IMG/VR virus record: IMGVR_UViG_3300031520_000012
Span: 1 to 38,639 of that record
DNA from: a virus
Taxonomy: Duplodnaviria; Caudoviricetes
Strand: one strand, 5' to 3'
DNA: 38,639 nucleotides
A program made the translations under genes and the position numbers. Below, in pieces: positions 19,429 through 23,565 of the stretch (its first letter is position 1; every line of letters starts with the position of its first letter). A model generated the notes under the pieces. It made no database searches, was not told where the DNA came from, and saw nothing but the letters and a program-made list of their open reading frames with translations.

Positions 19429-19457
19429 GCTCTTAGCGCTCTTAAATGCTCTTAAAA
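19429..19457. repeat. Three phased GCTCTTA repeats in the G-I intergenic region
   Basis: gctctta at 19429, 19438 and 19448. Confidence 0.7.
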
Positions 19458-19466
19458 CCTCTCAGG

Positions 19467-19976
19467 CTATCTCGCACCCGGCAGCAGCACACTGACGGCG
19501 TCAAGCACCGCTTCCTCGTCGGCCGGACCGAAGCCGAGATAGGGGCGCGCCGGGACCGTCACGCTGCGCGCCAGCACCAGGTGGCCGCCGAGGTGGAAGG
19601 CGAGCGAGCGCGCCGTCTTCGGCCGGATCACGCCGCCGAATTGGTGGATCGCGGCGTAGACCTTGTTGCTGCCGACCTCGACCTGGTTGCGGGCGGCGGC
19701 GAAGGTGATGCTGCCCTTCAGGCCGCCGCTGTCGCCCATCTGTTGCAGGATCGGCATCGGCTTGCGCTGCTGGGCATAGGCCGGGTTCAGCGCCTTCCAG
19801 GGACGGCCTTGCGGATCGGTGCCGGCGTCGAACCGGTCGCGCGTCGTATGCTGCAAGCCGACGCCGATCGCGCGCATCAGCCCGAGCCGGCGCACAGGGT
19901 TGGAAATGTCGAGCTGGGCGAGGGCGCGGGTGAACGCTTCGTGGCGAAACTCGAAAGAGATGCGTGCGCCGGCCAT
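19467..19976 (-). CDS. Virion morphogenesis protein (Mu gpG / tail S family)
   Basis: LMRAIG..L...T.DRF....DP.G.PW..L, VGSNKVYAAIHQFGG, VPARPYLG. Confidence 0.95.
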   Translation of the reverse strand: MAGARISFEFRHEAFTRALAQLDISNPVRRLGLMRAIGVGLQHTTRDRFDAGTDPQGRPWKALNPAYAQQRKPMPILQQMGDSGGLKGSITFAAARNQVEVGSNKVYAAIHQFGGVIRPKTARSLAFHLGGHLVLARSVTVPARPYLGFGPADEEAVLDAVSVLLPGAR

Positions 19977-19998
19977 GGTGTCAGTCTATCATCGTCCT

Positions 19999-20095
19999 CG
20001 GTGCGTCGCGACGCGGTGATATTCTCCCTGCCGTAGCCCTGCTTTCGAGCGGGTAGCATTATGAGGGGTTGCCGGGAGGCCCCTCCGGCGCACCG
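19999..20095 (-). ncRNA. Candidate structured RNA overlapping the 3' end of the MuF-PBECR gene
   Basis: Closing stem CGGUGCG/CGCACCG, hairpins GAGGGG/CCCCUC, CCCGCU-CGAA-AGCAGGG and CGG/CCG, and loop-loop complementarity CUCCC/GGGAG. Predicted by eye only. Confidence 0.5.
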
Positions 20096-21282
20096 TCGGT
20101 TTCCTTCAGTAATGCCGCTGCGGTGCCGAGCAGCACTTGGTGCTTGCGCAACAGACGATCGACATCCTTGCGATCCGCTCGACGGAAACTGGTGACGAAC
20201 AGGCGATCGCCGGCGCGCGTCGACTTGACGAACGCGACCAGGATGGCGGGCCCGACCTGTCGCAGCAGGATCGCCTTGTGTGCCGTCTCGCGCAGCACGA
20301 GCTGCGGCGCCGCGAGCATCTCGGGCAAGCGCAGATAGTCCTCGCGGGTGAGCTCGCGATGCACGGCGCGCTGCTTGGCAATGCTGCCCGGAGACAGCTC
20401 GACCTGGTCGACCTTGGCGCCGATCGCCTCGCCGATCGCTTTGGGCAGCGCGCCGGCCGCGCCGCCGACTTCGCCCGAGAACGGATCGTCGACGAACTTG
20501 GAAAGCTCGACCAGCGGCGCCTCGGCCGGCGGGATCGGCACCCGCAGCGGTCGCAGCGGCGAGGTCGGCGTCTGCGGCGGCGGCTGCCCCTCTTGCCAGG
20601 CCCGCCCCGGGTTGTAGCCGAAGCCGGGATCGATGCCGTGCGGCACCTCGGTCTGCACCCGGCCGTCGCGCGAGCGCCAGGGCCGCATATCCAGCGGCGG
20701 CGCCTCATCCGGCCCGCGCTTGCCCTGGCGCCGCAACCCCGCCTCGCTGACCGGGCGCACGCTGCATTTGCAACGCCATCCGTTGGGCGGGTAGTGCGTC
20801 GACCACCAGCCGTCGTCGGCGCGCAGCGTGGTGCCGACCCAGGCCAGGTGTTGCGGCCGCGGATGCGCCGAGCTGGTGTGCATGTATTGCCAATAGGGAT
20901 AGACGCGCAGCGTGTCCGGTTCGGTCATCTGGGCATAGCGCCCGGCCGCGTAGGCAGTGCTGAGATTGGTTTCGTAGATGATCGAGGCGCGCCAGCCCGG
21001 CGTGCCGTTGTGCACCCAGCCGTGCTTGGCGACGATCGCGTCGAAATCCTTGCGGAATTCGGCGAGCGTGGTGCCCTGCTCGAGCGCCTTGCTGACCGCG
21101 ACCCGGAAGTCCTCGACGATGGCCTGGGTGGCGGCGCCGGCGACCATGAAGCTGCGCGTGTGCGCCTCGTTCCAGACGTCGGTCCAGCGCAGGCTGGTGG
21201 TGTTCGTCTTCTGCCGCAGGAACGTGATCGCCTCGGCCGGCGGCAGCGATGCGGCATCGAGCGTGCTGTGCGGATCAGCCAT
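20059..21282 (-). CDS. Head morphogenesis protein MuF (gp30) with C-terminal PBECR-like RNase domain
   Basis: MuF: F.VAGA, TL.EFRK.F, IYETN..TAY.AGR, PRPQH..W.G..L..DD.WW..HYPPNGW.C.C.V, GIDPGF.YNPG. C-terminus: KQRAVHREL...DY..LP..L..P..V...VKST..G..LFVTSFRR. Confidence 0.9.
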   Translation of the reverse strand: MADPHSTLDAASLPPAEAITFLRQKTNTTSLRWTDVWNEAHTRSFMVAGAATQAIVEDFRVAVSKALEQGTTLAEFRKDFDAIVAKHGWVHNGTPGWRASIIYETNLSTAYAAGRYAQMTEPDTLRVYPYWQYMHTSSAHPRPQHLAWVGTTLRADDGWWSTHYPPNGWRCKCSVRPVSEAGLRRQGKRGPDEAPPLDMRPWRSRDGRVQTEVPHGIDPGFGYNPGRAWQEGQPPPQTPTSPLRPLRVPIPPAEAPLVELSKFVDDPFSGEVGGAAGALPKAIGEAIGAKVDQVELSPGSIAKQRAVHRELTREDYLRLPEMLAAPQLVLRETAHKAILLRQVGPAILVAFVKSTRAGDRLFVTSFRRADRKDVDRLLRKHQVLLGTAAALLKETDGAPEGPPGNPS

Positions 21283-21460: not shown

Positions 21461-21739
21461 TTACAGCCCTTCCCGCGCGTTCTCCGCGAGCGCCCGGCGC
21501 ATCCCTTCTTCGGTCGCGTGCAAGATGCCCGGCAGGTCGGCCTGCAGGCGGCGGAGCTCCGGCCCGCGTTCGCTGGGCGGCAGCGCGCAGACCTCCTGCA
21601 TCAAGAGCGCGCAGAGCAGGGTGATCCGGCCGTCGAAGTCGAGCGGGAGCAGATGCGGTTGCATCTTGCGCATTGCTCTGAAGACGGCCGGCCACTGCTC
21701 CGGCGCCGGGCGCCGGTCCGGTCTGCGATCCGCGCTCAT
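21461..21739 (-). CDS. Hypothetical protein (92 aa)
   Basis: MSADRRPD... starts at an ATGA overlap with the portal stop. Confidence 0.65.
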   Translation of the reverse strand: MSADRRPDRRPAPEQWPAVFRAMRKMQPHLLPLDFDGRITLLCALLMQEVCALPPSERGPELRRLQADLPGILHATEEGMRRALAENAREGL

Positions 21740-23565
21740 GATCCAGCCCCCTTCAACTCGTCCAACAGCGCCGCCTGGCCGGTCAGGAAACCTACCGCGA
21801 TGCCGCGCTGCATGGCGGCCTGGAACGCCGCCGGGTCGAGCTGCAGGCGCTCGAGCCGGTCCCATAGATCGTGCATGTCGGACGCGTCGTCGATCGCGGC
21901 CCGCACCTGGTCGGTCAGCCCCTGCAACGCGGCCTGCGCGTCGAGGCCGAGCCGGCGTGTCAGCGCATCGATCAGCTCGGGGTCGACGGTCGACGGCAGC
22001 TCGGTGCGGAGCTGCAGCGCCTGTTTGGCGACCGGCTCCGCATTGCCTGTCTTCGCGTCATTGCCGGTCTTCGCGTCATTGCCGGTCTTCGCGTCATTGC
22101 CTGTCTTCGCGTCATTGCCTGTCTTCGCGTCATTGCCGGTCTTCGCGTCGAACGGTGCGTCCTTCGTGCGGGTCACCTGCGGCGGGCTGACCTCGGGCAC
22201 CGGCGGCGGCGGCGGTGCGCCGCCGATTACCTCGTCGCCGTCGGCCGGCTCGTCGAAGCCGATCCGCTCGCGCATCTGCTTGGCGGTGATCGTCAGCCCC
22301 TGCGGGCCGAGCCACTGCATCGTCTTGACGATGTCGTCGAGCGCCGTCTCGTCCGGACGGCCGATCAGCAAGCGTGGGTAAACCCGGCCGCCGGTCCGCA
22401 CGTAGGTCGGAAAGTTGAACGCGATCATCAGCGGCACGAGCTGCTCGCTGATCGTCACCGACAGCCCGCGCGCGTCGGCGCGCTCGATGTCCTCCTGCAC
22501 CAACCGGTGCTCCTTGGCGACCGCGTGGCCGCCGCTGACCGCGTCCGTCGTCGTGGTCTGGCCGAGCACGAGCTTGCTGACCTGGTAATCGAGCCAGTTG
22601 CAGCGGCGCTCATAGAGCTCGGCCGCCGCCATCGTGCCCTCCATCTTTTGGAACTCGATCTCCATCGACTTCGGAATGATCGCCGCGCAGTCGCCGGCGA
22701 TGTTGGCGACCGCCGACCACAGCACGTCGCGGTCGGAGGGCGAGCTTTCCGGGCCGTAGCGCCCGACCCGGATCGGCATGCCGTAGTTCTGCGTGAAGAC
22801 CGCCCAATCGCGCTGGGTGAAGGCCTTATACATCCAGGCCCATGACGCGACGCGCGCCACTCCCGAGCGCAGCAGGATGCCCGATTTGGCCTTGTGCCGG
22901 TGCACCAGGAATTTGTGCGCGGCCAGCGGCACCAGCCCGATCTGGCCGGGAAACAGGGCGCCGGGCAGCGCGCCGATGCCGGCCGGCACGAACGCGGGTT
23001 GCTCCAGCGCCTCGACCGACAGATCGCGCATCAGCACCGTCTCGCCGTCGGCACGGCTGACTTCGAACCACCGCGGCGAGCGATAGTCGAGCGCCCGCGG
23101 CTGGATGCCGTCCGGGCCCACCTCCCAATCGATCTCGGTGACGCTGTAGCCTTTGCCGATCGCGTCGAGCATGTCGAACAGCGCATTTTCCAGCGTTCCG
23201 CGCTTGATCCAGGCGCGCAGAAATTCTGCGTGCCGCTCGTGCTCCGGGTCCTCGCTCGCCGCCTCGACCTGGATCGGCAACTGGCTGACCTGGCGCCGCC
23301 GGGTCGACAGCACGCCGAGATAGTGCAGGTCGCGCTCTTCGATGTCCTCGGCCAGCTCCATGTAGGCCAGGCTGTCGCCCTCGGCCGCCGCGCGGTGGAT
23401 CGCGGACAGCTTGCGCGGCGTCATGCCGTCGGCGGGGAAGCCGGAAGCCACCGGCCTGACGCCGGCCAGCGTCGCCCCGGCCTGGGTCTCGCGCAGCCGC
23501 GCGATCGCGTCCGGCCGGATCGGCTGGCCGTATTGGTCGATCAGCTTCGGCAGGTCAGCAGGCAT
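21736..23565 (-). CDS. Portal protein (Mu gp29, DUF935)
   Basis: LIDQYG.P, LAEDIEERD.HY..VL.TR, DA.GKGYS..EI.W, DW..F...YGMP.RVG.Y, SK.VLGQT.TT. Confidence 0.96.
   Translation of the reverse strand: MPADLPKLIDQYGQPIRPDAIARLRETQAGATLAGVRPVASGFPADGMTPRKLSAIHRAAAEGDSLAYMELAEDIEERDLHYLGVLSTRRRQVSQLPIQVEAASEDPEHERHAEFLRAWIKRGTLENALFDMLDAIGKGYSVTEIDWEVGPDGIQPRALDYRSPRWFEVSRADGETVLMRDLSVEALEQPAFVPAGIGALPGALFPGQIGLVPLAAHKFLVHRHKAKSGILLRSGVARVASWAWMYKAFTQRDWAVFTQNYGMPIRVGRYGPESSPSDRDVLWSAVANIAGDCAAIIPKSMEIEFQKMEGTMAAAELYERRCNWLDYQVSKLVLGQTTTTDAVSGGHAVAKEHRLVQEDIERADARGLSVTISEQLVPLMIAFNFPTYVRTGGRVYPRLLIGRPDETALDDIVKTMQWLGPQGLTITAKQMRERIGFDEPADGDEVIGGAPPPPPVPEVSPPQVTRTKDAPFDAKTGNDAKTGNDAKTGNDAKTGNDAKTGNDAKTGNAEPVAKQALQLRTELPSTVDPELIDALTRRLGLDAQAALQGLTDQVRAAIDDASDMHDLWDRLERLQLDPAAFQAAMQRGIAVGFLTGQAALLDELKGAGS
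22041..22148. repeat. 6 x 18-bp tandem repeat in portal (DAKTGN)
   Basis: cattgcc(t/g)gtcttcgcgt x6. Confidence 0.95.

Follow-up and report, generated by a model that had tools for sequence, protein, structure and literature searches.

The gap behind the MuF head protein gene of a Mu-like phage harbors a small RNA gene on the opposite strand, which represents a real and uncatalogued RNA family with a four-way covarying fold. Its arms are arranged as in a tRNA, and the MuF protein that ends beside it carries a C-terminal domain of the PBECR type. The best reading, which we regard as probable by a modest measure, is that of a tRNA-shaped RNA antitoxin or immunity factor that binds and blocks this domain, a predicted ribonuclease.

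Locus, fold and strand of the RNA gene

The window, i.e., the whole stretch of 38,639 nt that was analyzed (IMG/VR record IMGVR_UViG_3300031520_000012), is a Mu-like phage record with genes for transposase, MuB, portal, MuF, gpG, protease and gpT. The MuF gene (20059..21282, − strand; 407 aa; Pfam PF04233, E 2e-15; PHROG 220) is separated from the portal gene by two small ORFs. The 82-bp gap that the initial annotation had described was found between MuF, whose stop ends at 20059, and the gpG/Neck1 gene (19467..19976, − strand), which starts at 19976. With a MuF domain and a C-terminal toxin-type domain behind the portal gene of a temperate phage, the window MuF has the make-up of a MuF polymorphic toxin; a small immunity ORF directly downstream was not found. 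A 60-aa ORF in the gap (19877-20059) was rejected as immunity protein, because it overlaps gpG by 100 nt and has no PHROG match, and because the arms of homologous RNAs vary in all three frames. Elsewhere in the window, the portal protein contains a tandem DAKTGN repeat of six units near its C-terminus (21736-22100, − strand), a large ORF with collagen triple-helix repeats is located in the tail-fibre region (119-2476, − strand), and three spaced TAAGAG-like repeats are found in the gpG–protease interval (19430-19460), upstream of a promoter-like site (19330-19302). Judging from Mu, we take these repeats to be possibly a late-activator or gyrase site.

The RNA gene comprises about 97 nt (19999..20095, + strand; predicted start at 19999/20000). 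The stems listed in the initial annotation and the complementarity of two loops (20078-20074 with 20028-20024) are all present. Read on the + strand, the acceptor-like closing helix P1 (5' strand 19999..20008, 3' strand 20086..20095; 10 bp with one U.G) is followed by a linker of 4 nt, a stem-loop in D-arm position (20013..20034; 4-bp stem and 14-nt loop with CUCCC at 20024-20028), 1 nt, an arm of variable length in anticodon-arm position (20036..20057; UUCG loop in the window), 5 nt, and a 6-bp stem in T-arm position (20063..20085; loop with GGGAG at 20074-20078). The last stem runs straight into the closing helix, on which it is stacked directly, and the first loop pairs with the last one in a loop-loop or kissing helix. 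The D-arm position is the most conserved part of the molecule and the anticodon-arm position the least conserved. The 3' strand of P1 overlaps the tail codons of MuF on the other strand. This overlap, for which about 12 MuF codons had been claimed, measures 37 nt in the window and covers the last ~11 codons plus the stop; inverted, displaced and orphan copies exist elsewhere.

A 23-nt core of the RNA retrieved 37 viral contigs, and a gapped pattern recovered 56 genome loci, which belong to several phyla to judge by the titles of their records. Variant patterns provided 36 more metagenome and 15 more viral loci; they left out the commonest loop base, so that these matches sample variants and do not count abundance, and four of the 36 metagenome loci (L168, L186, L191, L193; one repeated sequence) are chance pattern matches without a CM match. 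The pooled CM matches amount to 137 distinct sequences, and the window RNA itself, which is a training sequence of CM R1, scores 81.8 bits. With blastn, only a 26-nt core was recovered among phages, in one Mannheimia Mu-like phage (two records), together with one plasmid match, and a search of E. coli genomes gave no match for the RNA. Two copies each are present in L167 and L196. In a host chromosome (L070), two orphan copies whose kissing triplets differ are arranged in tandem (2488-2590 and 2647-2749) between fliJ and the gene for citrate synthase, and a third copy is located elsewhere (G033 C5). Rearranged Mu-like head remnants with gpT, protease and a small HTH gene keep the RNA without an adjacent MuF gene (L006, L049, L062, L073, L035, L020, L069, L096). 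A strict 5' leader of gpG was considered for the RNA and rejected, as many loci have a protease or host gene downstream, or none at all.

The earlier proposal had been tied to conservation and covariation, and the fold including the kissing helix covaries far beyond the controls. In an alignment of 33 sequences, 89.0% of the cells are paired compared with 73.0 after shuffling, and the covariation score is 0.415 vs 0.114, with slid partners reaching at most 0.089. The + strand alignment A8 of 21 chosen sequences pairs in 94.9% of the cells and scores 0.521 vs 0.144, with slid controls not exceeding 0.132; the shuffle control ignores the relatedness of the sequences. An exact partner in the kissing helix was found in 125 of the 134 parsed RNAs (three of the 137 were unparsed), and the triplets are of eight kinds, namely CCC, GCC, CGC, ACC, CCA, GGC, GUC and CAC. 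The compact pseudoknot contains near-invariant unpaired bases, and the lengths of both arms differ among copies in all three frames, which documents conservation at the level of RNA and not of protein. The folding energy is unremarkable compared with shuffled sequences (z -0.61; separately -1.33 on the + and -1.16 on the − strand). A search of the whole window against Rfam by gathering score gave no match, nor did one by E-value between 19300 and 20400. In a tentative 3-bp helix used in building R1 the wobble bias is reversed (83 vs 34), and this element is probably no helix.

The RNA had initially been placed on the − strand, fused to the 3' end of MuF and preceded by a -10-like CATTACT. The G.U wobble bias and the sigma-70-like promoter locate it on the + strand, convergent to MuF. 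In 100 distinct RNAs, counted over four helices without the three outermost P1 columns, helix mismatches can be read as G.U in 88 cases on the strand opposite MuF vs 26 on the MuF strand. With a sigma-70-like score of simple consensus weights of our own making, the opposite strand has a promoter leading into the element above the 95th percentile of the background in 75 of 96 cases and the MuF strand in 4 of 95, i.e., the side of CATTACT is at background. The spacer is mostly 17 nt long, and the -10 hexamer ends mostly 2-8 nt ahead of the closing helix. In the window, a weak predicted -35 hexamer GTGCGC (19964..19969, + strand), which overlaps the first codons of gpG, and a predicted -10 hexamer TATCAT (19987..19992, + strand), which is located within the ribosome-site spacer of gpG on the other strand, are separated by 17 nt and end 6 nt before the closing helix. 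The overlap of the promoter hexamers with the gpG start is a possible confound wherever gpG follows; the signal is also present where it does not (e.g., L013, L045, L075).

Contigs from DNA runs confirm the assembly of the window and provide close variants. Three changes (20006 U>C, 20007 C>U, 20050 C>U) are all compatible with pairing on the + strand, and the last two of them are incompatible with pairing on the − strand. Among the changes listed, one close variant shows three in the 97 nt of the RNA vs 42 in 386 nt overall, six of them within 8 nt just outside the RNA; four changes were seen in the promoter spacer of a close variant and none in its -35, again among those listed. The supposed fusion to MuF is likewise replaced by a separate convergent gene that can move by about 1 kb or be inverted. 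In L150 the RNA is inverted together with its promoter, and in L016 and L085 a gene for a D12-class adenine methyltransferase lies between MuF and the RNA, which remains with its promoter at the gpG start. A clade of stand-alone nucleases with RNA on alphaproteobacterial-type chromosomes (L092, L056, L057, L072, L077, L143) has poor sigma-70 promoter scores, and its RNA promoters share a GCCCGCTG.C-like motif, perhaps that of another sigma factor.

The PBECR-type domain and its pairing with RNA

The C-terminal BECR-fold domain of the window MuF (20098..20520, − strand) exhibits the family-conserved His, Lys and Ser/Thr; His and Lys are invariant in the 29 sequences of alignment A3, and the window protein has Ser. 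Both the His within the N-terminal helix and the C-terminal Ser/Thr are those expected of PBECR. The AF2 model (pLDDT 89.7) is closest in structure to BrnT (Z 6.9, rmsd 2.9, 75 aligned), and the colicin D tRNase follows with Z 6.0 (rmsd 3.0, 84 aligned). All top ten structural matches, including BrnT, colicin D, CdiA and RelE, are BECR-type toxins with middling Z-scores of 5-7, all under 8. No ToxN-like chain was among the structural matches listed, nor was a toxin of the AbiQ, CptN, TenpN or AbiF families among the structural and Pfam matches listed, and Foldseek gave no match at E <= 0.001. Pfam provided only weak MuF_C and PBECR2 matches: the window domain reaches E 0.048 and 14.2 bits against MuF_C (cut-off 27.6), and a 77% identical homologue E 0.008 against PBECR2. 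Accordingly, the PBECR label given initially holds for the fold and fails by Pfam, as the domain stays below every cut-off (PBECR1-3, MuF_C). PADLOC returned one weak match in 29 domains. The family comprises 1,833 representatives at 50% identity (E <= 0.001), and the domain is a predicted ribonuclease.

The association between domain and RNA was assessed from both sides. Starting with the RNA, 111 distinct copies had at least 500 nt of flank (13 of 124 were dropped as too short). In 62 of them the domain ends within 100 nt, in two it is found at about 1 kb (L016, L085), and 47 are orphans without such a nuclease within 1.5 kb; the domain profile was built from RNA neighbours and may therefore miss other clades. 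A PBECR2 gene is located near L084. In most paired copies the RNA abuts or overlaps the stop codon of the nuclease gene. Nine paired genes of the first set encode stand-alone proteins of 114-159 aa, mostly between housekeeping genes. Among the loci with orphans or short flanks, none of 41 genomes or records, many of them incomplete, contained the domain anywhere (control 5/5). Two complete virus records harbor an orphan RNA and neither such a domain nor MuF.

Starting with the nuclease, 33 loci were obtained from 802 genomes. R1 matches at 14 of them; at a further 14, including the inverted copy of L150, a closed RNA of another kind, whose loops are complementary, was recognized by eye at the stop. 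One locus has another motif, no RNA was found at L144 and L158, and the distant matches L165 and L166 have a small protein gene behind the nuclease and no RNA. Starting with MuF, 86 loci including the phages Mu, B23, POA1180 and Dulem 31 were collected, of which 67 were analysable; their categories were assigned from Pfam and by inspection. All eight R1 matches are located behind PBECR-type domains of the window kind. The absence of the motif behind short MuF genes, which the initial annotation had made a decisive check, was observed (0/15), and R1 was equally absent behind other-toxin (0/17) and degenerate MuF (0/4). Intact other-toxin MuF genes are followed by an ORF within 60 nt in 13 of 15 cases; the automatic next-ORF finder mis-called the gaps of L242, L267, L276 and L288. 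Of the 31 PBECR-type MuF genes, 23 are followed by a convergent promoter with a score of at least 11.5, compared with 6 of the 36 others.

The type of RNA clusters with the protein clade (11 changes vs 19.4 shuffled in a tree of 58 rows), which is no proof of co-evolution, since kin share labels. L144 and phage B23 have each lost His and Lys; neither has the RNA, and both are placed with good support as sisters to genes that bear one. In phage Mu, gp30 overlaps gpG, leaving zero gap and no RNA; Mu gp30 has been called inactive in the available part of PMC5512222. His is absent and the RNA kept in L150, L151 and L154-L156, and in L005, L259 and L281 the His column is occupied by another residue. 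A partner RNA is thus not limited to clearly active enzymes. The distribution is asymmetric: no intact nuclease without RNA was found among the full-length His+Lys genes examined, and RNA without nuclease is common.

Several further arrangements were noted. Other compact RNA types with complementary loops are found right behind related PBECR genes, most of them with a convergent promoter (L145-L149, L151, L152, L154-L157, L161, L163, L001, L002, L220, L221), and those scanned gave no Rfam match. L225, L279, L280 and L159 share the motif TACGTCC.AAACG in the first ~60 nt after the stop of PBECR3-type genes, which is probably another RNA type. A non-coding gap follows the PBECR2-type MuF genes of L248, L252, L261, L262, L264, L267, L273, L276 and L283, with a strong convergent promoter in eight of the nine. 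L067 (G042 C253, 2627-2935) harbors a second, partial and inverted PBECR copy directly beyond the RNA. The 35.8-kb record L221 (PP511318.1), which contains genes for portal, MuF and capsid, has been assigned to the Microviridae, probably by mislabelling.

Likeness to tRNA

On the + strand, the secondary structure of the window RNA has a tRNA-like layout, from which we infer a corresponding shape in three dimensions. The cloverleaf of tRNA has the same order of closing helix, stem-loop, middle arm, linker and last arm. The window RNA contains no T-loop motif, no anticodon loop of 7 nt and no CCA, and it has no Rfam tRNA match; in the absence of a TTCGA loop its likeness to tRNA is one of layout only.

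A more complete likeness was found in the MuF_C-type clade, whose domain is homologous to that of the window (hhalign E 1e-4). All six full-length genes (three of these genes being training sequences) in a sample of 301 genomes from the order Burkholderiales are accompanied by a convergent RNA with a TTCGA (GGTTCGA-type) T-arm that ends at the stop codon of the nuclease. These RNAs (L274, L265, L255, L309, L310, L311) have a canonical T-arm and neither a proper anticodon loop nor CCA. The RNA of L274 (2643-2715, − strand) folds into a cloverleaf and scores 32.1 bits in the Rfam tRNA model (cut-off 29); it could be mis-annotated as tRNA-Arg. By E-value, a scan of 37 related loci provided only this tRNA match and a weak one to tRNA-Sec in L265. 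In L241, which belongs to the same clade, the convergent RNA has no T-arm. A viral scan with the domain of L255 revealed no relative, and relaxed ARAGORN runs, which gave many junk calls, were not used as evidence. As a wider rule, PBECR domains are linked to convergent cloverleaf RNAs, the function of which we infer.

Proposed function and relation to known systems

A predicted promoter of its own, the position in the slot of the immunity gene, joint loss with catalytic residues, the asymmetric distribution and a tRNA layout opposite a colicin-D-like fold make an RNA immunity factor the simplest account. The RNA would be transcribed from its own sigma-70-type promoter and could thus exist in the lysogen while the late genes are silent. 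According to the MuF literature, the nuclease would travel in the head and be released into the next cell. With its elbow and the stacked acceptor/T-like helix, the RNA may occupy the tRNA-binding surface of the domain, thereby protecting the producing cell and making it immune when related phages deliver the same nuclease; orphan copies would represent free-standing immunity genes. From the earlier proposal, the idea of an RNA partner in place of an immunity gene gains from conservation, kissing-helix covariation and the lack of matches behind short and other-toxin MuF genes. The part according to which it is the 3' end of MuF, read from an internal MuF promoter, has to be given up in view of the promoter of its own and the 47 of 111 copies without adjacent nuclease. 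Against an immunity factor count the five His-less genes that keep the RNA and the three with another residue in that column, the same 47 orphans together with the 41 genomes or records without the domain and the two complete virus records without MuF, the RNA of L241 without T-arm, the likeness of the window RNA to tRNA in layout only, the reversed wobble bias in the tentative 3-bp helix, and the structural Z-scores under 8.

The RNA may also be cargo or product of the PBECR domain, which would bind or trim it, perhaps as a decoy carried in the head against host defences that cut or sense tRNA. We consider this unlikely but by far not negligible, as it accommodates the His-less clades that keep the RNA and the orphans in the two complete virus records without MuF. 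An RNA-binding role has been suggested for inactive PBECR in the accessible sections of PMC5512222, and phage tRNAs counter tRNA-targeting defences as far as the excerpts of PMC11555353 and PMC10264068 tell. Cargo or decoy does not account for the place of the RNA in the slot of the immunity gene, for its loss together with His and Lys in two lineages and its absence in Mu, or for the orphan and tandem copies maintained by host chromosomes (L070); moreover, the arm in anticodon position is the least conserved part.

The remaining readings fit worse. A cis-antisense or convergent-transcription regulator of the type I kind, damping MuF or late mRNA, is improbable: convergence, an own promoter and contact with the stop codon in most paired copies agree with it, but a conserved tertiary fold would not be needed for it, inversion is seen in one copy (L150) and displacement by 60-1000 nt in others (L137, L141, L142, L016, L085), and a cognate gene is missing beside 47 of 111. 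Slightly less probable still is a new self-cleaving ribozyme. The compact pseudoknot with its near-invariant unpaired bases would suit this reading, as would the enrichment of self-cleaving ribozymes near Mu-like genes in the part of PMC10085705 available, but there is no Rfam ribozyme match, the closing helix coincides with the start predicted for the RNA, and dissimilar folds, some of them tRNA-like, occupy the same slot according to the nuclease clade. A structural head-assembly RNA, for which phi29 pRNA serves as comparison model, has very little probability, since despite its location in the head-gene cluster and complementary loops that could pair between molecules, the RNA is absent from Mu, was not found behind short MuF genes and accompanies stand-alone nucleases between housekeeping genes.

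If the RNA is an immunity factor, PBECR-type virion nucleases as a class may be paired with dedicated, convergently oriented RNAs that mimic tRNA, part of them descended from real tRNAs and part having a Watson-Crick elbow, whose orphans were captured by hosts and unrelated phages as a protection against capsid-delivered tRNases. This generalization is plausible, if rather less than an even prospect. The RNA offers a testable answer to the question why an immunity ORF is missing for many MuF proteins of proteobacteria that end in a nuclease-type tail. If true, the proposal predicts a substrate class (tRNA) and an inhibitor for a large uncharacterised nuclease family, and it would add a polymorphic toxin system with RNA immunity genes and thus a new form of RNA-based immunity, wider than type III arrays, with a natural series that leads from RNAs with a true T-arm to mimics with kissing loops, plus chromosomal orphan copies. 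A practical warning is that some tRNA-like matches in Mu-like head modules are not tRNAs. No description of the RNA was found in the literature, where an unnamed earlier listing is possible (supplementary motif catalogues, 2015 ribozyme-gene survey); the available parts of PMC5737381 and of the supplements of PMC10690425 contain nothing on MuF.

In type III toxin–antitoxin (TA) systems (ToxIN, AbiQ, CptIN, TenpIN) and AbiF/RCd22, a structured non-coding RNA is encoded next to an RNase-type gene, according to the portion available of PMC12373285. The RNA of the window resembles type III systems in being structured, non-coding, pseudoknotted and placed beside a predicted RNase-type gene, the protein product of which it is predicted to neutralise by binding, and it shares the prophage location with AbiF. 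The analogy drawn in the initial annotation breaks down at the repeat array and at co-transcription. Unlike type III RNAs, which are located upstream of the toxin gene, separated from it by a terminator and co-transcribed with it, the window RNA is a single copy without repeat array (at most two full copies per locus in L070, L167 and L196), downstream, on the opposite strand and with an own promoter. Its protein has a BECR fold and is fused to a virion protein, and the RNA has a cloverleaf layout and many orphans. The RNA and the MuF nuclease are hence not a member of type III TA.

MuF toxins are described with protein immunity in the text available of PMC5576092. The window system shares with them the variable nuclease-type C-terminal domain on MuF, the temperate phage and a partner right behind the gene, and its domain may be the Ct_MAD extension of that excerpt. 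With PBECR, as presented in the accessible parts of PMC5512222 and bioRxiv 10.64898/2026.08.28.747851, it has in common the BECR fold, the N-terminal-helix His, the C-terminal Ser/Thr, and MuF-fused as well as solo forms; it differs from catalogued PBECR in its scores below the Pfam cut-offs. A partner RNA is not described in those parts of the two sources. With tRNA and tRNA-like decoys (Rfam RF00005), finally, the window RNA shares four arms, the last of them on the closing helix, and the contact between first and last loop. Its elbow differs from that of tRNA in being a Watson-Crick kissing helix, and the nuclease clade homologous to that of the window has RNAs with a true T-arm.
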